From: Eledone cirrhosa
Lineage: Eukaryota
Assembly (NCBI GenBank): GCA_964016885.1
Contig: OZ024740.1
Span: forward strand, 194,308,001 to 194,372,000
Direction: 5' to 3'
Length of the DNA: 64,000 bases
Below, one piece after another: positions 2,953-62,031 of the stretch. Position numbers and translations under genes: made by a program. The notes below the pieces were generated by a model. That model saw nothing but the letters and a program-made list of their open reading frames with translations. It searched no databases and was not told where the DNA came from. The stretch's first letter is position 1. Each line of letters begins with the position of its first letter.

Positions 2953-4239
2953 CTAATATTAGCCGTAGGATCTCCACCCTCTCATCCTCAGAAGCTATTT
3001 TCAATAAGGCATACCCCTACTATAATAAAGCCCTTCGAAATAGCGGATTTAGCGAACCGTAGAAGTACATACCCAACAATACTAACTCCTTTAAACATAA
3101 TAATAGGAAAAGAAAAATAATCTGTTTCACACCCCTCTACTCTTTAGCAGTTAAAACTAATGTAGGCAAAACATTCATAGAGCTCTTAGATAAACATTTC
3201 CCCAGAACACATAGATACTATAAGATCTTCAATAGAAACTGTGTCAAAATCAGCTACTCCTGCGGTCCCCCTAATAAATCTTATATCATCAATAAGAAAA
3301 TACCCAGAGAACATCAAAATTGCTCCTGTAGAGTCAAAAGTGAGTGCCCATTACAAGGTAAATGCAACACCAAAGCCATTGTATATGCGGCTAAAGTGAC
3401 AACCAGCAGCAACAACCTACCAGCCACCAGCGACACAAGACAAATTCAAAACGCGTTATTACTCACATGTCCCATCTTTCTGACATCCTGAAAAAAGATT
3501 TACAACAGCTCTGGCTAGCAGAATATGGGATTTGAAAGACCAAGGTATCAAATATAAATTAGATTGGTCAATTTTGAACCCATCTAAAGTATATGCAAGA
3601 AGAACAAGAAGATGAGCACTCTGCATAAGTGAAAAATATTGTATTTTACAGAACCTTAAATCACTAAAAACCTGCCTGAATGCAAAAACAGAAATTTTCA
3701 CCAGTTGCCCACACATGAAATCACACTTGCTTTCCAGCACATATAAACTTAACTCACTTTCAGATACTTATCCTCTATAAACTCTTGTTCTTCACTTTCC
3801 TTAAATTACCCTCTTTACAGACTTCTCTTTCCGATTTACTTATATTTTTATTTTTAACTTTATTTTTACTTCACATCCACCAGTGACCCTGCTTTTTGAT
3901 TCACTTACTTTATATCTTCACAATTTTACATATTTTACTTCCCCATTTTCTTTCACTACCTGATATCACTTGTCACTTGCGTTTTCAACTCCATATATAT
4001 TCTGTTGTCTCCCAGCCGCTTTTATGTATGTTCACTTGCGTATAATTTGTACTCATTTATTCATACGGCTGGTTTTTATATTGTATCTATGCGTGTGAGC
4101 GTGCATGTGTGTGTATGTCTGTTTGTATATGTATACGAATGCATTCGTATGTGCGCATGTGTGTGTACATGTGTGTGTGTATGTCTGTTTTTATATCTAT
4201 GTTTTTACATACTTATATATATGTGTGTGTGTGTATATG

Positions 4240-9870: not shown

Positions 9871-10444
9871 CTTACTTTATAATATGTTACATAGCTCTGA
9901 TATTGAGTCAATTTAATTATTTCGAATATCTTGTCTCTCATAATCATAGGTCAACACTAGTTAAGGTCGACAACACACAATCTCACATACTTGTGAAAAA
10001 ATATATGTTTATACATACATGTATCATATATGCATGTATGCACATATATCTGTGTACATCTCATTATTGTATATATAAAATAAAGTACCAGTAATGGATT
10101 GTGTAATTGCTGGCCTTGTGCCGAAAGTAGAAAAAATTAATGTATATATATATATATATATATAAATGGAATAGAATGAAACGAAATTTCATTTATCACT
10201 CTTAGTACGGCACTTACTTAAATGCAAGTATGTATGTATGTATACGTACATACATATATGTATACAGACGTACAGTAGTATGTATATACATACATGCACA
10301 CATATATATATATGCACGTATCGGTTTACCGAACATTTATTATAATGCTCGGTTTGTTTGTTTGTAAACAAAAAACCAGCCCGAATTACGCCGTACAGTG
10401 TTTAGGCAACCACGTCATCTTTTTGTTCAACACTGACACTGGAT

Positions 10445-10485
10445 CGATGTACTAGTTTCAAGCTTATTAGCTATCGTCAGCATCG
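10445..10485 (-). ncRNA. Minimal type I hammerhead ribozyme
   Basis: CGATG-CTGACGA-T-AGCT-AATA-AGCT-T-GAAA-CTAG-TA-CATCG. Confidence 0.85.
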
Positions 10486-10915
10486 TATACCTTCCTGCCA
10501 GATGGTTGAACGTCTGAAAGTATATACTTTCCTTATGCATATTAACGGCTGAGCAGCCTAATTTGCATATCGAGTGAGTTCAGTCGGCCGGGCGCATTGT
10601 ACGGCGTAATTCGGGCTGTTTGTTTGTTTACAAACAAACAAACCGAGCATTATAATAAATGTTCGGTAAACCGAAACGTGCATAGATATATGTGTGCATG
10701 TATGTATATATATAATACTACTGTACGTTTGTATACATATATGTATGTACGTATACATACATACTTGCATTTAGGTAAGTGCCGTACTAAGAGTGAGAAA
10801 TGAAATTTCGTTTCATTCTATTCCATTTATCGTTTTCGGTCCGCCCGGCCGACTGAACTCACTCGATATGCAAATTAGGCTGCTCAGACGTTCAACCATC
10901 AGGCAGGAAGGTATA

Positions 10916-10956
10916 CGGTGCTGACGATAGCTAATAAGCTTGAAACTAGTACATCG
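10916..10956 (+). ncRNA. Minimal type I hammerhead ribozyme
   Basis: CGGTG-CTGACGA-T-AGCT-AATA-AGCT-T-GAAA-CTAG-TA-CATCG. Confidence 0.85.
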
Positions 10957-11151
10957 TTCCTGTGTCAGTGTTGAACAAAAAGGTGATGTGGTTGCCTAAA
11001 CACTGTACGGCGTAATTCGGGCTGTTTGTTTGTTTACAAACAAACAAACCGAGCATTATAATAAATGTTCGGTAAACCGATACTTGCATATATATATATA
11101 TATACATACTACTGTACGTCTGTATACATATATGTTTGTACGTATACATAC

Positions 11152-14803: not shown

Positions 14804-16709
14804 TGTGTGTATAGTTATATATACATTGGAAATATCAATGAAATGGACACAGTTATTATCCATGTACGCTTAAAAATCCCACTGAGTTCAACACTAGTTT
14901 CATCTTTTTTTCATGTGTGGATAAATAAAGTACCATTCGAATGTTTGAAAGTTGTTATTCCTTACCTCTTTATTCTTTCTCTTTTATCTCTCAGATTTGG
15001 CTACGATCTAGTGGGAAATGATGCCACTCAAGCTTTTCTATCAGGTTATGTCTTTGGCCAAATCGGCTGAAGCAGGCAAAAACGAGCAAAATACAGGCAG
15101 TAGGTTTCTTAGGAACTTATAGAATTCTTGCCCTTATAGAAAGTATATATCTTTAAGATTAAATTAGCAGGAATGTATGTTTCTTGTAACACGTGAAAGA
15201 AAAGGGGATATAACATTCTGACAGAGCACAGTACATTGTTTGAATTCAAACAGAATATATTTAATTTCCATTTCTATTTTCCCACATAATATTATTTGCA
15301 TCTTGTTTTCTTTCTTCTCTGATTTGTATTTTTTTCAACACTTACCTTTATTTTTCTTCTATTTCCGGCAACGCTTTGCTTCTTCTACCTTTGAAATGAT
15401 CCATTATCAGATGCACATTTTTGCATATTTTCTCAGAGATGTTTCATTTCTGTTTTTCTTCATTTCTACTGTGGAATAAGACATTATAACTGCCTTCGTT
15501 CCTCAATCGCATTTATGTAACTTTCATTCCGCAAGCGTAACCAAACTTTAATTCTACAAGGTGTGATATATGTCTTTTTTTTCACAACATGTATGCAATT
15601 TATGTTCAACAACGTATAACGTCAGTCTAACAAGACCCCAGCGCAACCATTTATCTTATTCTTGTAACTCCTAAATTTCATTTAGTTTCTAAAAAAAAAA
15701 AGAACTAATTTTATGGTGCTACCCTATAACTAAGCTTTTGGTGTAGCCATGGTTATTTTTGTTGTTGTGACTGTGCGTTTTATTGTTTCTCTTGTTTGTG
15801 TGCATTTCGTATGCATTGCAGCTTTATTGTTGCATCTTTGTTTTCACTTGCATAGTTCCTTCTGCTGCTGCCTTTGTTCTTAATGACTATGTTGTCGCTG
15901 TATTGGCTTTTACTTGAAATGGAAGGATATGAAAATTGAATCCGAGAATAAAATTTAACACTTCTTCAACCCTCAAGATATATTTAGAAAATATTTATTT
16001 CTATTCATTTTATGCAAATATCAAGAACAGTTAAAATTATGATAAATACCAAGAGTCCATCGATTGTTCTAGGCTAAAAGATTATAGCTTTATGTATAGG
16101 ACAATAACTCCAGCCTTTGGGTTTCTATGGACATTACAATTTTGTTGGATGCTTTATCGTTCTCTTGGTGCCAATTGCATGTAAAATATCGTTTAAGAGG
16201 TTTTCAGATTAATAGAAGAAGGAAATATATGTTTATGACTTTGGAAAATGACCAAACACGACGACGAATGAAATATAATGTAGAGAATAACTCTAAAGTT
16301 TAATGTGTTGTTGTTGATTGATCAGCACCCAGGTCAAACACGCTCAAACAGATCTATATCACAGGCGTTCTAGTCATAGTCAGCACATCTTATTTAAAAC
16401 CTTGTCTTTTTATTTAAGATGCTAAATCATAATATAAACGATATCTGATTGCTCTTTGTAGCTGATCGCGTGATCACTTAGTTTATTGTGATCATAATAA
16501 TATCTTGAGCTACTCTGCCAGAAAGGTAAGAGAGTTTGAGATAAAAGCAACATACAAGGACGTAACTCGAATATCACCTGCTGAGCGAAAAGTCTTAACC
16601 ATATGGACGATGTAGGTTGGAATGGATCCTGTGGTGATAGAAGTGAATATGTTTTAATCATACTGAGCACTGATGTACTTTCCGCTCTGTTAGAAAGATT
16701 AAGAATCGT

Positions 16710-16746
<37 letters not shown>

Positions 16747-17011
16747 TATATAATTGGAGGCATAGTAAAATTGAATCTTTGGCGGTGTGCAAGCAAATTC
16801 GACCTATGATATGAATGAGTTAGCAAAGCACTCGGGAAGGTAGGTCCTTAGAGTAATAACATACGTTTAAATAGCTTGACAAACTGAACATTGTGGTAGT
16901 CCTTCATCAGAAGAAAGAATGAGAAATAAGATAGACTGAGGGGACGGGTGGGTTGGAATTGGAAAAAAATGTCTTTAGATAAAAATAACAGATCCATTCA
17001 CGTTGACATCT

Positions 17012-17190
<179 letters not shown>

Positions 17191-17999
17191 TATTTCTATT
17201 TCCAGATACCTTTTAAATATATATATATATTTATTTCCAGATACCTTTTAAACGTAACTTTCCGTATATATTACTGTTATGAGATATTGTTTGTTATCTA
17301 GGTATCATTTCTCTGTTTTTAAACTAAGAAAATAGCTATATGCGTGTGTAACATGCATACATTTATTTTTTTAAAATTAATTGAGTTCTTAACACGCAGG
17401 ATTGATAATGTTTTTGAAAAAACTAATTAACCCACGTGTATATTATTTTACTTTTCTTGTGACTCGCGATTGCCTCCCTTTTCCGCTTCGTGACGCTATG
17501 ATATTTCCTCAGTCTAAAGACTGCTGGAATTTCAAATTAGGCGGTCATTTGATGCGTGAAAGGATGACTTAGCGGACACGAAAAATAACTGCGGTAAGAA
17601 ATTGTTTCTTATATCAAAGTTTAATGGGCATCCACTGATGATTTATAAGTGCCCACCTACATATATTCTTACAGAAAAATATGTTAGGCTTCTACATAAA
17701 CTGGAAACATTCTCCCAACTTGTAGAAAACTTATAATGAAACAATTGTTTGGAAAGAGAGATATATTTTAATTTTAATTATATCTCATATAAAATAATAC
17801 AACTGGCTTTCCACAAAATACATATAGTTAGCACCCCAAACACAAAATTGGGATTATACTAACGTATATCCTAATGTTTGTTGAGTGAGATGGTTACCAG
17901 TCAGAGTTTAGCTTAAAGCTTTCTCTGCTATTGTATTGAATATATATATATATTGTGGACTCTCCCGTTGTATTTCGGCGTATGCGTGTTCAACACAAT

Positions 18000-18290
18000 T
18001 TCTCAATTCGTTTTTGTGGTTATGTCTTAAATGGTAATTTAGTTCAGATGACAGGATTTTGAACGAGTAGGATAGATAGTTTGATCGAATCTTGTTCGAA
18101 CTTATATCACTAAGTTGGACCAAATGAGATGTTTCAAAGTTCTATTTACCTTTCTTGTAGACAATTCTCCATTTTTCATGTTCAGCAGCTAGGGCTTCAA
18201 AACGAGTAGATGTGTTCACAAATTTAGGATTGTACTTCAGTTTGTCTCTATAATTGAATAGTGGTATTCCTTTCCTGAGAAGATATTAAT
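18000..18290 (-). mobile_element. RTE/BovB-like LINE 3' fragment
   Basis: Minus translation RKGIPLFNYRDKLKYNPK...FEALAAEHEKWRIVYKKG*NFE resembles the RTE C-terminal motif (RGRP..RYKD.LK...WE.LA.DR..WR). Confidence 0.55.
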
Positions 18291-18926
18291 CCTTATGTAG
18301 ATGATTTCATAGCTGTTTTTTATTATTGATGTTGTTTATACAAAAGCCAGGCATTAAAGAGTTGACCTATGATTGCACATTTCAGCGATAGCCATTCCAT
18401 TTTTGCACAGGACTCAGACAATATTTTGAAGCAAGGCGACATGATGTTAATCTGTCAAGTCGTCATTGTGGCATGATAGAGTCAGGATATACATTAAAGC
18501 ATTTGTAATGCTTACCAAAACAGTTAATAATTGTCGAATGCGTGGGTGAAGGTGTGAGTAATATCTGAAGAAGAGGGAGAAATAATTGTTGTTTATAATA
18601 TTGTTAATAATATTGTTTATTATAGATTCTAATGCCCCAAGATGAATATCTAAATATAACTTAACAGACTTAATGTTCACCAAAACATTAATGGAAATAA
18701 GATTCAATCGTCTACCGGCAGTATGTCTACTTTAAATTCATTATATTTGATGTGAGGCCGAATGAATACCATTCAGTATACAATTAACAATGAAGAACAG
18801 TTACATTCATGAAGCAAATAACAGTAATAACTGATTTTTAAATAGCTGTGATATGTAAATTGTATAAATGGTAGAAATGTGCGTTTGTTACATTCTTGCA
18901 TTGCTAATGCCATCAATGATATATAT

Positions 18927-31096: not shown

Positions 31097-31490
31097 TGTA
31101 AGTCAACAGGCTAAAATTAGCTTCCTTTATCCATATTAGCTGCTATATATATTTCTGTGATAGCCATTATCCAATAGCTATGACCTCATCAGGCAGTAAG
31201 AACGTGAACAGAAAAATCAGGAAAACATAATAACATAATGTTGTAATAGATTTTACCTTATTAATTCATTGATATGTTCAGACACAGAGTGTGGTGTTAG
31301 TCCTCTAACGTACTGAAAACATATCAATGGATTAGCAAGGTAAAATATATTCCAACATTATGTTTCCTGTTTTGTCTGTTCAAGTTCTTACTGCCTGATG
31401 AGGTCATAGCTGTTGAATAATGGCTATCACTGAAATATATATAGCAGCTAATATGAATAAACGGAGTTAATTTTACCCAGTTCTTGTTTA
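31097..31490. mobile_element. Divergent inverted pair of family C pLTRs, each with an HHR (minus 31140-31196, plus 31391-31447)
   Basis: Arms ~31097-31275 and ~31322-31490; CTGC-CTGATGA-GGTCATAGC...GCTATCAC-GAAA-TATATA-TA-GCAG in both. Confidence 0.85.

Positions 31491-35839: not shown

Positions 35840-35848
<9 letters not shown>
35667..35848 (+). repeat. Inverted duplicate of 40875-41055
   Basis: Reverse-complement match of roughly 95% by eye; a third partial copy lies at 40798-40846. Confidence 0.9.
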
Positions 35849-35902
<54 letters not shown>

Positions 35903-35906
<4 letters not shown>

Positions 35907-38724
35907 TGGAATAAATGCTCTGAAATAGCGATATATATGTGAATATAGACATAGAATATTCGAAAATATTCTGTATGTTTATAATAAACATTTTGAAGAC
36001 CTAATCGCTATAGAATAGAATACGTCACGTATTACAATTAGATTCTCGATAAAAGCAAGGGAAGTAATCTACGCGTTTCATTCTCGTTAGAAATCATCAG
36101 GACTACATATCCAGTGCTTTTATCGAGAATGACACAGCTAGAGACTTATAGAATACTTAGCTGTGTACAGGAACTGGTTTGAAAGAGCGGTTGCCGGTCC
36201 GGCAGAAATTAGAAATTGGAATAAATGCTCTGAAATAGCGATATATATGTGAATATAGACATAGAATATTCGAAAATATTCTGTATGTTTATAATAAACA
36301 TTTTGAAGACCTAATCGCTATAGAATAGAATACGTCACGTATTACAATTAGATTCTCGATAAAAGCAAGGGAAGTAATCTACGCGTTTCATTCTCGTTAG
36401 AAATCATCAGGACTACATATCCAGTGCTTTTATCGAGAATGACACAGCTAGAGACTTATAGAATACTTAGTTGTGTACAGGAACTGGTTTGAAAGAGCGG
36501 TTGCCGGTCCGGCAGAAATTAGAAATTGGAATAAATGCTCTGAAATAGCGATATATATGTGAATATAGACATAGAATATTCGAAAATATTCTGTATGTTT
36601 ATAATAAACATTTTGAAGACCTAATCGCTATAGAATAGAATACGTCACGTATTACAATTAGATTCTCGATAAAAGCAAGGGAAGTAATCTACGCGTTTCA
36701 TTCTCGTTAGAAATCATCAGGACTACATATCCAGTGCTTTTATCGAGAATGACACAGCTAGAGACTTATAGAATACTTAGCTGTGTACAGGAACTGGTTT
36801 GAAAGAGCGGTTGCCGGTCCGGCAGAAATTAGAAATTGGAATGAATGCTCTGAAATAGCGATATATATGTGAATATAGACATAGAATATTCGAAAATATT
36901 CTGTATGTTTATAATAAACATTTTGAAGACCTAATCGCTATAGAATAGAATACGTCACGTATTACAATTAGATTCTCGATAAAAGCAAGGGAAGTAATCT
37001 ACGCGTTTCATTCTCGTTAGAAATCATCAGGACTACATATCCAGTGCTTTTATCGAGAATGACACAGCTAGAGACTTATAGAATACTTAGCTGTGTACAG
37101 GAACTGGTTTGAAAGAGCGGTTGCCGGTCCGGCAGAAATTAGAAATTGGAATAAATGCTCTGAAATAGCGATATATATGTGAATATAGACATAGAATATT
37201 CGAAAATATTCTGTATGTTTATAATAAACATTTTGAAGACCTAATCGCTATAGAATAGAATACGTCACGTATTACAATTAGATTCTCGATAAAAGCAAGG
37301 GAAGTAATCTACGCGTTTCATTCTCGTTAGAAATCATCAGGACTACATATCCAGTGCTTTTATCGAGAATGACACAGCTAGAGACTTATAGAATACTTAG
37401 CTGTGTACAGGAACTGGTTTGAAAGAGCGGTTGCCGGTCCGGCAGAAATTAGAAATTGGAATAAATGCTCTGAAATAGCGATATATATGTGAATATAGAC
37501 ATAGAATATTCGAAAATATTCTGTATGTTTATAATAAACATTTTGAAGACCTAATCGCTATAGAATAGAATACGTCACGTATTACAATTAGATTCTCGAT
37601 AAAAGCAAGGGAAGTAATCTACGCGTTTCATTCTCGTTAGAAATCATCAGGACTACATATCCAGTGCTTTTATCGAGAATGACACAGCTAGAGACTTATA
37701 GAATACTTAGCTGTGTACAGGAACTGGTTTGAAAGAGCGGTTGCCGGTCCGGCAGAAATTAGAAATTGGAATAAATGCTCTGAAATAGCGATATATATGT
37801 GAATATAGACATAGAATATTCGAAAATATTCTGTATGTTTATAATAAACATTTTGAAGACCTAATCGCTATAGAATAGAATACGTCACGTATTACAATTA
37901 GATTCTCGATAAAAGCAAGGGAAGTAATCTACGCGTTTCATTCTCGTTAGAAATCATCAGGACTACATATCCAGTGCTTTTATCGAGAATGACACAGCTA
38001 GAGACTAATTGTAATACGTGACGTATTCTATTCTATAGCGATTAGGTCTTCAAAATGTTTATTATAAACATACAGAATATTTTCGAATATTCTATGTCTA
38101 TATTCACATATATATCGCTATTTCAGAGCATTTATTCCAATTTCTAATTTCTGCCGGACCGGCAACCGCTCTTTCAAACCAGTTCCTGTACACAGCTAAG
38201 TATTCTATAAGTCTCTAGCTGTGTCATTCTCGATAAAAGCACTGGATATGTAGTCCTGATGATTTCTAACGAGAATGAAACGCGTAGATTACTTCCCTTG
38301 CTTTTATCGAGAATCTAATTGTAATACGTGACGTATTCTATTCTATAGCGATTAGGTCTTCAAAATGTTTATTATAAACATACAGAATATTTTCGAATAT
38401 TCTATGTCTATATTCACATATATATCGCTATTTCAGAGCATTTATTCCAATTTCTAATTTCTGCCGGACCGGCAACCGCTCTTTCAAACCAGTTCCTGTA
38501 CACAGCTAAGTATTCTATAAGTCTCTAGCTGTGTCATTCTCGATAAAAGCACTGGATATGTAGTCCTGATGATTTCTAACGAGAATGAAACGCGTAGATT
38601 ACTTCCCTTGCTTTTATCGAGAATCTAATTGTAATACGTGACGTATTCTATTCTATAGCGATTAGGTCTTCAAAATGTTTATTATAAACATACAGAATAT
38701 TTTCGAATATTCTATGTCTATATT

Positions 38725-38736
<12 letters not shown>
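35903..38736. mobile_element. 310-bp tandem array with one hammerhead ribozyme per unit and an internal inversion (retrozyme/pLTR-like)
   Basis: Unit starts at 35903, 36213, 36523, 36833, 37143, 37453 and 37763 (6.8 units), then ~2.4 inverted units from 38005. HHRs on minus at 36064-36106 +310n (7 copies) and on plus at 38250-38292 and 38560-38602. Confidence 0.95.
38250..38292 (+). ncRNA. Minimal type I hammerhead ribozyme (representative of 9 copies)
   Basis: GTAGTC-CTGATGA-T-TTCT-AACG-AGAA-T-GAAA-CGCG-TA-GATTAC, enclosed by a 16-bp helix ATTCTCGATAAAAGCA/TGCTTTTATCGAGAAT (38226-38314). Confidence 0.9.
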
Positions 38737-38756
<20 letters not shown>

Positions 38757-38761
<5 letters not shown>

Positions 38762-40760
38762 GAGTTAAACAAGATTCAATGAGTACAGCATAATGATCTT
38801 AATAATTGTTTCTACTTTTGGCACAAGGCCAGCAAATGCCCAGTACATTACTGGTACTTTATTTTATCGACCCCGTATGGATGAAAGGCAAAGTTAACCT
38901 CGGCGGGATTTGAACTCAGATCATAATGATCTTAATAATAACGTTAACATAAATGATACTAAACCAAAATGTAATTGTAGAAATAAAACTGACTGCTCTC
39001 TACAAAATATTTGTCTAGATAATAATTTGGTTTATAAATGCACCGTAAAAACTGATCACAACACATACAACTACATAGGATCGACTTCTTCTACATTTAA
39101 AGCCAGATTTGCGAACCATAAATGCTCATTCTCGAACTCCAAGAGGAAATCATCCACTTCTTTATCACAGCTCATATGGTCATTAAAAGAGAGGAATTTA
39201 AAATACTCCATTTTTTGGACAAAATTTCGGAATTGTGGAGTCTACCGCAACTCTAGTATATCAAATAACTGCGCGCTCTGTACAATGGAGACCCTGTTGA
39301 TTATTAATAACTATGAGACCTTAATTAACAAAAAAAGTGAATTATTCTCTAGTTACCTTCATAAAGCTACGTCTACATTCTTAGCCCCCCACAAAACCAT
39401 AAAAAAGAGGAAGAAACACTAAATCATTGAAAACTTGGTTTTCAGACGTAATTAACCAACAGGGAAAAACAGTAATGGCCTTTAATATTGCATTATCTTA
39501 TAACTATCTATAGAAGAAATAACGCTCGAATGAATGACACTTGTTCAATAAACACGCTGATACGTTGATATACATAACATAATAGTATTAACTTTGATCA
39601 ATACCATTATTCCTCTATCTTTATTTTCCTATCTGAGTTTTAAATTTTAGTTTAAATATCCAACCTGTTTATTTTTACGGACCTTATTTTTAACTGTGAA
39701 TCATTCATGTGTTTACATTTTTTATTTATAATATGTATGTAATTATCTTTTGTAAATTTTTAAATATTCCTACTTATATTTCTATCCATGATTCAAATAT
39801 AGAGCAAATATCTAACCTATAAATTATTACGGACCTTATTTTGAACTCTGAATTATCCATGCATTTATTATTATTATTTTTCTTATATATATGTATGTAT
39901 TTAACTGTAACACGTTGAAATCTATTATATAAGATTTATAATCGTTATCATTTATCTGAAGTATACTGTATCACTAATACTTAATATATATCTATATATA
40001 TCTCTCTGTATCTCTCTATACCTAATTTTTAGATAACTTTTGAATTTTTAGATTATTATTTATTTCGAACTTGAATAATTCAGGCATTTACACCCTTTTA
40101 TATATATGTATCTATTTAACTTTAGCATGTTTGAATCTATTATTTTATATTTGTTATCATTTACTTAAAATATACTGGTTCATTAATATATCTCTATATA
40201 CCTAATCGTTATTTAAATATTTCTAACAATAAGTACTTCATAAGCTTTACATACCGAAAATGTTGACATATTTATAGGTAATCTTCGTTAAAGATTACAT
40301 TTAGGAAAATATTCAACAGTGTAAATTTTCCTTTCGCTGGCCAGGTAAATCCTTTAAATTTTATCCTCATAAAATTCAGAAGTTTAGAAATGTTAACACA
40401 CTTATAGAATTTATAAAATCATCGTTCAGCGGCCCTCGTGGACTGTTATAATTCGTGAGATGTTTTCCTAGATAACCATAAATTGTAGTATCCTACATTT
40501 TAAAATCTCTATAGCTGTCGCATTAACCAACGTTTTTCTTACTCACACATTCTCTATTGAATTTATTACGTTTTCGCAATTTCTCATTATTAGGGTATAA
40601 ATGTTGAGTTTTCTCTTGGGTTATTCACTACCTTGATTAAATCTTAACCATTTAACATCTCAAGGTATGTCATGTATCATTATATTTTGTCTGATGAGGA
40701 ATTACTGTTGTACCTCTGAAATATTTATAATAAAATTTAATTGATCAAAAGAACATCTAT
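38757..40760 (+). mobile_element. 5'-truncated Naiad-type PLE: GIY-YIG endonuclease, AT-rich 3' UTR, degenerate HHR at 40687-40730
   Basis: ORF 38910-39422: KCNCRNKTDCSLQNICL..LVYKCTV..YNYIGSTSSTFKARFANHKCSF..LSQLIWSLK..CALCTME..LINKKSEL; TTGT-CTGATGA...GAAA..ATAA plus AATAAA near the end. Confidence 0.9.
38804..38921 (-). mobile_element. 5'-truncated family 1 SINE with 18-bp TSD, inserted in the PLE
   Basis: TSD CATAATGATCTTAATAAT at 38789-38806 and 38922-38939. Confidence 0.95.
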
Positions 40761-40843
40761 TTTATTAATATTTGTATTTTAATATATATATATATATGTT
40801 TTAGTAAGAGATTCTTGTATAAAACGCCAAACATTGACTCTAT

Positions 40844-59904: not shown

Positions 59905-62031
59905 ATGCAGAAACAACATCTGAATATTTCTACAAAGAACATACCCGTACCAAGCAGGAAAACATACCTAAAATTCCTGATACAGAAAACACGCGTTCAT
60001 TAAATGGTTGCGTTGGCGTGCCTTTTATTTCGATAATCCGCGAAAAGCAGACAACAAACAGGATACATTTGGGTTTAAAACCTATAATAACCCCCCGTGT
60101 AACCCAGCATTGCTACACTTCGAAAATGATGTCTTGAAACTCATACGGAGTATCAAATTTCGGAATAGAAGCAATTCCTTCCAGCAGGACCTGAAGAATA
60201 GAATTCGTTCTATTAAGGATTCTAATGCTGTGCACGTCCATACCGACAAAACTGGCAACCTATATCAAGTGGAGCGCAGTACTTACCATCAACTACTACA
60301 TAATGCTGTAACTAAGGATTACCGTAAAACTAATCGGTGCGTCATCAATGAAATCAACGATACTGGGTTTAAAATCACCTCAGATCTCAATATCCTGGAC
60401 CGGACCGAACCTCTAGACCCTATTTCTTCCCACTTTACCCTGAAGGATCACAAATCCAATTTTCAGAACAACCCCTCTATTCGGCTTATTAACCCTACGA
60501 AGTCCGATTTAGGTAGACTTAATAAAAGGGTTCTTCATAGAATTATACCTGAAATTGGAAGTTTGGCCCCTCTTGCACTGTGGGACAATTCTTTCGCGGT
60601 GATTGATTGGTTCAACGGCATATGCAACAAGGAACATTGCCGTTTTATCCAATTCGACATCAACAATTACTACTCCTCCTTCACTTTACCACTCCTCCTT
60701 AGAACTATCAATTTCGCTAAAACACTCACAGTGGTTAAGGATTTCGAAGTTGATGTCATCCTCAATGCCCGTAAGTCGGTGATTAATTTCGACGACTCTA
60801 TTTGGATTAAAAAATCCAATAGTACCCCATTCGACGTGAGTATGGGCGCTAGCGATTCTGCGGAGGTTACTGATCTTATCGGCCTTTTCCTTTTTTTCTC
60901 TATCAAGGACGAATTCACCAACGCGGGCGGTGGTTTGTACCGTGATGATGGTCTTTTGACCATGACTAAGTGCGGACCTCGTGCTTGCGACAGGTTCAGA
61001 AAAGAACTCACACCCTTCTTTAAAGGCTTCAACCTCTCTATACAGGTTGAGGCCAATCTTTCGGTCGTTAATTACCTCGACGTTACCCCCCATTTATCGA
61101 ATGGGTTGTATTACCCGTATAGAAAGCCGAATGATACGCATAATTACATAAGTAAGCATTCCAACCATCCTGCCAGCATAACCAAGAACCTGGTAAGAAA
61201 CGTTTCGTTGAGGCTTTCCCGTCTATCTACTAACGAGCATATTTTCAACGACCATTCCACTTATTACAATGAAGCTCTTGCTCGGAGTGGATTTGGTGGA
61301 TTGTGATGTCGAATTGGATAAAACGGCAATGTTCCTTATCGATAAGGTAGCATATACAGAGTACGAAAATAGACCTAGAAGTAATAGATCCCGTCGCATT
61401 TGTTCGAATAACCCACCATATAATATGGAGGTGGCCACACCATTAGCTAAGATCTTTCTTTCCCTTATTACGAAGCATTTTCCCCCTAAACATAAATATA
61501 GTAACATTTTTAATAGAAATACTATTAAAATGTCTTACTCTACGACTCCTAACCTTGCACATAACATTACAGATTCAAATTTAGCTAAACTACCTAACCG
61601 TAGGAACACGTGCAACCCTGTAGTTAGTACTAACTCTAATTGGAGGAATCGGGTTGATTGCCCCCTATCCGGGAAATGCCTCTCTAGTAACATTGTCTAC
61701 AAATGTAAGGTTGAAAAACTCACGTCCCTAAATAGGGTTAACCGCCAATAGATTCAAGCAGCGTCTTTACATGCATACCCATTCTTTTCGTTACCCTCTT
61801 AGAAGGAATATGACGTCACTTTCAGCTTATATCTGGAGTCTAAAAGACAACCACACCCAATTTAAGTTACACTGGGAGATCCTAGCTAGGGCTAGATCGT
61901 ATAACGGAAATAAAAGACCATGTGACCTCTGCGCCGCTGAGGCCCTGGAAATACTCTACGCCACAGACCACATCTTAAACAAAAAATCTGAGGCAATTTC
62001 GGCTTGTAAATTGCACAAAACTTCGGCTTAA
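59905..62031 (+). pseudogene. PLE reverse transcriptase / GIY-YIG endonuclease ORF, disrupted
   Basis: ATG 59905 MQKQHLNISTKNIPVPSRKTYLKFLIQKT, frameshift, LRWRAFYF, DKTGNLY, TLKDHK, RLINPTKSDLG, QFDINNYYSS, DVSMGASDSAE, YRDDG, VNYLDVT, SNHP; frameshift near 61300; KHFPPKH..IFNRNTIKMSYS, CPLSGKCL, IVYKCKV; frameshift near 61735; IGLTANRFKQR..H, IWSLKD, CDLC, LNKKSE. Confidence 0.95.

Follow-up and report, generated by a model that had tools for sequence, protein, structure and literature searches.

The closest described relatives of the element reported here are the metazoan non-LTR retrozymes. In the available text on these (PMC7229834), they are tandem arrays of non-coding units of 150-450 bp with low G+C content, a self-paired fold and one type I hammerhead ribozyme per unit, and our family shares all of these features. 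RNA circles and cleavage are demonstrated there, whereas for our family they are predictions from DNA; that circles serve as RT templates, with PLEs as likely helpers, is a stated hypothesis of the same text (Cervera and de la Pena 2020, PMC7229834). Animal retrozymes derive from PLEs as non-autonomous elements, according to the available text of Li, Clavereau and Pollet 2026 (10.64898/2026.07.22.740005), where the evidence consists of co-occurrence and of pLTR homology in vertebrates; in our case, no homologous pLTR was found. Our family bears on how animal retrozymes re-enter the genome and on what hammerheads do in PLEs.

As far as the available texts describe it, the typical PLE insertion contains an inverted, 5'-truncated copy and a tail of 30-40 bp on one end (Craig et al. 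2021, PMC8557442; Arkhipova et al. 2013, PMC3846280). In vitro, a PLE protein cuts and extends both strands, and the tail corresponds to the spacing of the two points at which the RT starts (Frangieh et al. 2024, PMC11167929); in the accessible part of the same report the anole PLE mainly used RNA that had not been cut, and cleavage was dispensable. Divergent arms, a tail of this length on one end, two RT start sites and (TA)n targets are common to EN+ PLE insertions (PMC8557442, PMC3846280, PMC11167929, as far as their texts go) and to our family. Unlike EN+ PLEs, our family has no ORF, and both of its arms are multi-unit concatemers of a 310-nt unit and not partial tandems. Non-autonomous Chlamys elements such as MRC1 are, in the text of PMC8557442, likewise non-coding PLE parasites that are often multicopy head-to-tail. 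They are found in green algae, however, and their 3' end resembles that of autonomous partners, a likeness that we did not find among the PLE ends compared.

The class of element is known, and its dependence on PLEs has already been proposed in print; what is new is the anatomy of the insertions and the signature of the template. Two-armed insertions, fixed paired ends, (TA)n targeting and haplotype evidence, all present here, were not found in the text of PMC7229834. The literature searched, which was thin on subscription papers and supplements, yielded no publication that describes retrozyme insertions with two arms and a tail or that draws on haplotypes to characterise the template.

Structure of the array

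The window, that is, the whole stretch of 64,000 nucleotides of Eledone cirrhosa DNA that was analysed, contains an array of 310-bp units with a G+C content of 107/310, both within the retrozyme range (150-450 bp, G+C below 50%). Unit numbering starts after the predicted cut, so that unit position 1 is window position 38287 (Table 1). Nine hammerhead cores, seven on the minus and two on the plus strand, are distributed over two arms that both point outwards when read on the hammerhead strand.

Table 1. Array of hammerhead units and its flanks, in window coordinates
Feature	Position	Strand	Remarks
(TA)n target, left side	35841..35902	none	
Left arm, 6.79 units	35903..38006	minus	hammerhead strand; outer end unit 167 (tail end), inner end unit 234
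One-sided tail, unit 140-167	35903..35930	minus	left arm only; carries motif common to sister families
Seven hammerhead cores	36070..37960	minus	CUGAUGA starts 37960, 37650, 37340, 37030, 36720, 36410, 36100
Single-unit substitution, unit 219 G>A	36471..36471	minus	
Single-unit substitution, unit 157 T>C	36843..36843	minus	
2-nt CT microhomology linking inner ends of both arms	38005..38006	none	
Right arm, 2.36 units	38005..38735	plus	inner end unit 29, outer end unit 139 (short end)
Ribozyme domain	38226..38314	plus	38226-38241 and 38299-38314 pair as the 16-bp clamp, 38250-38255 and 38287-38292 as stem I
Ribozyme core	38256-38286	plus	base of stem II carries U.U; stem III 6 nt, palindromic; cut predicted after 38286
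Second plus-strand hammerhead core	38566..38596	plus	predicted cut after 38596
AU tract, unit 131-139	38727..38735	plus	complementary to (TA)n primer; short priming site
(TA)n target, right side	38736..38757	none	

A preliminary description of the locus had counted 6.8 units plus about 2.4 inverted ones with two substitutions, at 36471 and 36843; the measured arm lengths agree with this count, and exactly these two substitutions are present. The start of the array at 35903 stands, but its end lies at 38735, since position 38736, given earlier, is already one base into the TA run. Also borne out were the joining of the arms over the CT at 38005-38006, a 2-nt overlap, with (TA)n on both sides, and the presence in the unit of a 16-bp clamp around a minimal hammerhead and of further hairpins. 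Among the latter, the GC hairpin is present but folds as 5 bp with a 3-nt loop and not, as first drawn, as 6 bp with a 1-nt loop. The unit had been described as free of an ORF, and its longest open frame indeed has 59 codons, even when read round the circle.

Abundance and two-armed anatomy of the family

Genome-wide counts were made with sequence patterns, namely unit words, the ribozyme core and tail ends beside (TA)n. A 23-nt word of the unit has 16,752 matches and a control word none; the family accounts for some 5.2 Mb of the 3.0-Gb genome (0.17%). The exact 31-nt core with the ribozyme haplotype of the window occurs in 4,226 copies and its reversed control in none, and the abundance of the hammerhead core is not due to chance. 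The commonest exact tail end adjoining (TA)n has 956 copies, and tail ends at unit 163-172 adjoining (TA)n number 743 on the plus strand, from which we estimate roughly 1,500-1,700 insertions genome-wide.

We mapped 112 insertions in 111 stretches: the window, ten loci with the core pattern (the first among the matches listed) and about 100 tail-end loci. All are from one contig (C1), and the sample comprises about 7% of the insertions, mostly chosen by their tail end. The mapped insertions are dispersed to many loci and have no LTR, PBS or ORF of their own. Single-unit mutations amount to 0.04% per site (128 in 1,089 units); the burst is therefore very recent. Sister families are older, with units of 313-324 bp and the same ends, and the tail motif common to them has 6,712 matches. 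The array in the window represents a single insertion from a young family of non-coding retrozymes; on every feature that DNA can test, it is a non-LTR retrozyme.

Two divergent arms were found in 104 of the 112 mapped insertions and convergent arms in none. Among the eight scored as single, one lies at an assembly gap, one runs off its stretch and two have a second arm of less than 30 nt. The strand switch is the rule in this family, not the exception. Because the two arms are joined to each other between TA runs, there is no room for an ORF, and the unit is not only ever the pLTR of a coding PLE, a case that the preliminary description had kept in view.

That description had also expected permuted array ends, whereas the outer ends fall at two fixed sites in the manner of a PLE tail. 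A short end (unit 127-139) is paired with a tail end (unit 163-172) in all 102 insertions with both ends visible; the pairing holds equally in 10/10 insertions picked by the ribozyme core alone, regardless of their ends. Units 130, 139 and 165 are the commonest outer ends. The tail, the gap of 26-42 nt between the two sites, is present on one end only, and the tail end occurs on either side of an insertion. TA-rich flanks on both sides were seen in 10/10 core-selected two-armed loci, the remaining loci having been chosen for one TA flank. As to target-site duplications, only four loci have informative flanks; in L032, one of these, a direct repeat of 9 bp is visible, although it lies within a tandem repeat. 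The early view of a young non-autonomous element with a PLE-type insertion, primed from both sides of a (TA)n break, is backed by this genome-wide anatomy and by the paired end positions.

Where the arms meet without filler, they overlap by at least 2 nt in 45 of 74 joints (chance expectation 18%), and filler, mostly unit-derived, is present at 29 of 103 joints. Arms exceed one unit in 182 of 202 cases, with a mean of 1,484 nt (about 4.8 units) and a maximum of 8,459 nt, and their lengths are not exponentially distributed (KS p 0.007). Inner ends are evenly spread over the unit (p 0.23), 6 of 206 lying within 5 nt of the cut where 6.6 are expected. The inner ends of the two arms are not mirror images of each other (7 of 103 within 10 nt, 7.0 expected), which speaks against a fold-back model and against a read artefact. 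A pile-up of inner ends at unit 296 was an artefact of haplotype variants.

No single-unit mutation was detected in 42 of 101 insertions, and these average 8.8 units and reach 22; the arms therefore were long at birth. The mutation load does not rise with insertion length (rho -0.17, p 0.10), and block variants in the style of satellites are limited to the longest arms.

Ribozyme and working strand

Hammerhead core and stems are found in every unit. In the ribozyme the core is intact, stem I has 6 bp, stem II rests on a U.U pair and stem III is a palindrome of 6 nt; the whole lies inside the clamp. Rfam gave no hammerhead match at gathering score or at E<=10, so that the motif is recognised by pattern and covariation and not by Rfam. 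We aligned 14 ribozyme domains, that of the window and 13 of 23 sister segments that were picked as complete. Of the aligned cells, 91.6% pair, a value reached by 0/500 shuffles, while slid controls gave 40-52%. Both sides have changed in 16 of 23 pairs, a covariation count inflated by related rows. The catalytic pair, which we take to be C3-G8, is CG in eight domains and UA in six, a double change of the kind to be expected if cleavage is under selection.

The fold of the unit beats that of shuffled sequences (z -3.9, 1/100 as good), also when treated as a circle (z -4.4, 0/100). The opposite strand folds equally well (z -4.5), and folding alone thus does not pick the strand; no CUGANGA core, as a viroid-like RNA replicon with a ribozyme on each strand would carry, was found on the opposite strand of the unit. 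In the predicted helices, inherited variants keep pairs in eight cases and break them in none, whereas single-unit mutations keep 13 and break 38 (p 9e-5). On the opposite-strand fold, one inherited variant keeps a pair and 12 break pairs. Since inherited variants keep the pairs of the hammerhead strand and break those of its opposite, the hammerhead strand is, judged by these predicted folds, the working RNA.

Seven of the eight pair-keeping inherited variants are A>G, and inherited A>G changes fall on 7/30 paired A versus 2/61 unpaired A (p 0.005). Their placement in helices, unlike the C>T changes that predominate among pair-keeping single-unit changes (9/13), suggests A-to-I editing of the template RNA, although selection for G.U pairs could give part of the signal. 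The helix placement alone is significant; the overall excess of A>G over T>C is not (inherited 9:5 vs 11:19, p 0.11). No inherited variant falls in the 12 core positions, where only about one would be expected.

For a transcript with two ribozymes, the two stems III are predicted to pair with each other (0.89-0.98). Misfolding of the core is predicted for the monomer circle, with a probability of 0.13-0.15 for stem II, and stem I (0.86-1.0) together with the clamp is predicted to hold the monomer ends together. These folding predictions lend support to the dimer-type hammerhead of the preliminary description, and the predicted cutting would be like that of dimer-acting axolotl motifs. The available text on these motifs describes HHR_Amex1, with a 1-bp stem III and a palindromic loop, and HHR_Amex2, with a U.U at the stem II base, and gives 6% and 22% cutting as monomers (PMC7229834). 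The ribozyme of our family resembles both and carries the weak features of both. In vitro, 8/9 Xenopus retrozyme dimers did not cut, according to the available text of Li et al. 2026 (10.64898/2026.07.22.740005).

Haplotypes and the template

Among 103 insertions of more than two units we found 31 haplotypes, and nearly always a single haplotype runs through both arms. Seventeen variants occur in one insertion only, where they are fixed in every covering unit (24/24 in L185, for example), and 14 of them span both arms with repeats; such variants are private among 112 of about 1,700 insertions, and homogeneous parent arrays may exist unsampled. Variants with the same index in both arms are seen in 2 insertions, versus about 37 expected from multimers varied as today's arrays are (319 overlapping units x 0.118), an upper guide that would have to be lowered if parent arrays had only just arisen when they were copied or if the single-unit changes include errors of the assembly. 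Both arms of L180 switch between two common haplotypes after exactly two ribozymes, which means either that multimers serve as templates now and then or that the two RTs switch jointly. In L073, one variant is present in the outer unit of both arms, and in L061 and L188 the haplotype patterns differ between the arms. Mixed variants account for 15 rows in 9 insertions, including scattered repeats in the longest arms, which point to later unit duplication.

We scored 1,065 crossings of the cut site: 974 have the reference sequence, 87 carry whole-insertion variants at +2/+3 and four show single changes. An indel at the cut itself was seen in 0/1,065 scored crossings, a result that speaks for a ligated circle rather than for jumps from end to end. 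The template was continuous through the cut and mostly a single unit, and we think it likely that a circle was the main template.

Whole-insertion 1-nt insertions 2-3 nt past the cut, giving 311-nt units, were observed in L041, L047, L173 and L190 and in L169 and L182. Two of the three inherited indel haplotypes sit at this distance past the cut, possibly as stem I tuning or as a ligation scar.

Relation to PLEs

The family has the features of PLE-type insertion, namely an inverted 5'-truncated copy (the divergent arms) and the one-sided tail (102/102), and the AU tract at the short site can pair with the (TA)n primer. Two young coding PLE families with the same geometry, together with the published pattern of PLE insertion, make the enzyme class well supported.

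One of the two is a very young, intact Hydra-type PLE (L226:5000-9006; L239-L246) with RWK-like, DKT and CxCx5C motifs and a U3-A8 hammerhead, present in at least 150 copies at 99-100% identity; counted from the first Met, its frame has 716 codons. Its ends lie about 20 and 100 nt after its own cut, with a tail of 80-83 nt. Pfam did not recognise the Hydra-type proteins. The Hydra-type PLE also forms full-length tandems of up to 4.5 units, which differ by 0-7 bases within and by 9-36 between arrays, and in one coding PLE tandem four 3,531-bp units differ by 0-1 base. At 16671-18324 of the joined stretch L241-L242, where an arm has its inner end, a 55-bp piece of the Hydra-type PLE recurs about 30 times.

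The other, a very young, intact and two-armed PLE (L291:3465-5816, minus strand; L272-L290), encodes RVT_1 and GIY-YIG, has copies that are 98.5-99.7% identical and is presumably Neptune-type, the clade being assigned from motifs. No hammerhead core was found in its 4.7-kb unit. All two-armed loci of this family (12 of 17 fetched) pair a short end at an AU tract with a tail end 34-40 nt on; L290 was read by eye as a tail variant. Matching in tail geometry only, it is the best geometric helper candidate. In L277-L279, a whole two-armed Neptune insertion, TA flank included, is repeated five times with a period of about 3.87 kb; this segmental repeat is of later date.

A PLE end resembling the unit was found in none of 27 + 4 PLE 3' regions (about 1.4 Mb), 30 tail-motif loci and the two young families. 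The Hydra-type PLE is similar in geometry, but its tail is longer and 88/100 shuffles score as high against the unit. The Neptune-type PLE has the fitting tail, but it gave a z of -0.5 and no nhmmer hit and showed no hammerhead core, so that we also rejected it as a sequence-related partner. Another Neptune end, in L184, shows a weak likeness to the unit around the ribozyme only (z 2.5, 6/300 shuffles). L112, considered as a coding partner with the tail motif, was rejected as a single chimera with a 541-bp repeat family. The GIY-YIG fragment next to the array in the window belongs to an older family (matches 81-95% identical) with a different ribozyme and has no likeness to the unit. An autonomous PLE with an expanded pLTR was discarded as well, because no ORF with RT and GIY-YIG is attached and the arms join each other and end in TA runs.

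Mechanism and alternative explanations

We propose that the array is a young retrozyme insertion, likely written by a borrowed PLE RT that primed on both sides of a (TA)n break and likely rolled round one 310-nt, probably circular RNA. We consider this scheme as a whole fairly probable, and PLE-type double priming within it highly probable. Points against it are the weak features of the ribozyme, the Xenopus dimers that did not cut, arm lengths that depart from an exponential distribution, and the coding PLEs compared, none of which yielded a related end. Arrays would be transcribed on the hammerhead strand, and neighbouring ribozymes would pair through the palindromic stem III of each, cleave as dimers and set monomers free. 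By analogy with axolotl and coral retrozymes, a host ligase may close the monomers, and the predicted misfolding of the core in the monomer circle would protect the circle. A PLE protein would then cut both strands of a (TA)n run; in line with the observed end positions, one 3' end would prime at the AU tract (127-139) and the other 26-42 nt downstream at 163-172. As the mapped insertions show, each copy crosses the cut site without a break, extends over a mean of about 4.8 units and stops at a random place, and the two cDNA ends are joined over short microhomology or short templated filler. A minority of insertions may stem from mixed or multimeric templates, and the longest arms were probably reshaped later by unit duplication.

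With the same double priming, the usual template could also have been an uncut linear multimer from a parent arm, circles being rare bottlenecks if they occur. The haplotype switch of L180 and the outer-unit variant of L073, each matched in both arms, fit such a template, as do the predicted misfolding of the monomer ribozyme and the preference of the anole PLE for uncut RNA in vitro (PMC11167929, in its available part). Nevertheless, index-matched variation appears in only 2/104 two-armed insertions against the many events expected, the 31 haplotypes fill whole insertions and would require repeated one-unit bottlenecks with regrowth, and arms would shorten in each generation; we regard a multimer in this role as unlikely. 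A cut linear monomer, closed by stem I and clamp, on which the RT jumps from the 5' end to the 3' end in every round, would agree with the haplotype and inner-end data, all of which fit one monomer, ligated or not. Its ends are predicted to stay together, and two of three whole-insertion indel haplotypes lie close to the cut. Such jumps should, however, leave pauses or scars, and neither indels nor a pile-up of inner ends were detected at the cut, which makes this template quite improbable.

The available text of Li et al. 2026 leans towards local amplification of arrays, whereas the arms here look long at birth. Later expansion of short two-armed insertions by unequal crossover or slippage, satellite-like, would explain the variants repeated in scattered units of the longest arms (L049, L051, L052, L080; 15-29 units). 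As mutation-free insertions are already long, mutation load does not rise with length and the first repeat still requires copying through the cut site, we consider this route very improbable for the arrays. Fold-back self-priming on an antisense template has been proposed for inverted Penelope copies in Adineta and is in print for head-to-head PLE repeats (PMC3846280, in the text available), and the opposite strand is equally stable in predicted folding. Such self-priming, or a fold-back artefact of assembly, is hardly compatible with inner ends that lack mirror symmetry, outer ends that differ by the tail, flanks that differ between loci and inherited variants that fit the hammerhead strand only, and we give it scarcely any weight.

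Going beyond the proposed copying from a circle, we speculate that PLE retrotransposition on RNA circles has left a direct record in the genome. On a single ADAR-edited circle, two RTs of one complex would begin at points 26-42 nt from each other, travel outwards for as many as 27 turns, now and then switch template together (L180) and be joined head to head. Since near-identical full-length coding PLE tandems (3,531-bp units) exist, circles may even be a general PLE intermediate. We hold this extended reading to be tentative, a serious possibility that falls somewhat short of likely. If true, circles as a general intermediate would account in one stroke for pseudo-LTRs, tandems and inversions and for what the hammerhead does. 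One and the same genome offers more than 1,000 near-identical insertions, start sites predicted to the base, a candidate template of 310 nt and two candidate enzymes that are intact, and the route is therefore directly testable. For RNA-templated gene insertion, a protein-free RNA that enters (TA)n sites as arrays of many copies would also make a compact cargo.

Other elements in the window and the fetched stretches

Next to the array, at 38898-40790, the window contains a 5'-truncated Hydra-type PLE copy with GIY-YIG (38898-39422), a long 3' UTR, its own hammerhead at 40691 and a (TA)n end. Hydra-like PLE coding fragments of other families lie at 59981-62030 and 2958-3747, and single hammerhead cores at 1047, 5725, 25237 and 63839. 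The 540-541 bp hammerhead tandem family (L112:4815-5330; L117-L136) is also two-armed, and in L112 it is fused directly to a sister-family tail, possibly by a template switch between families. More than 15 hammerhead families occur in the roughly 1.4 Mb of fetched stretches, many with two end distances, for instance 43/133, 49/139 and 55/155 nt past the cut. In the window, three divergent pairs of hammerheads (minus first, plus second) from three other families are located at 2100-2230, 10400-11000 and 31130-31460 and show the same geometry in miniature.
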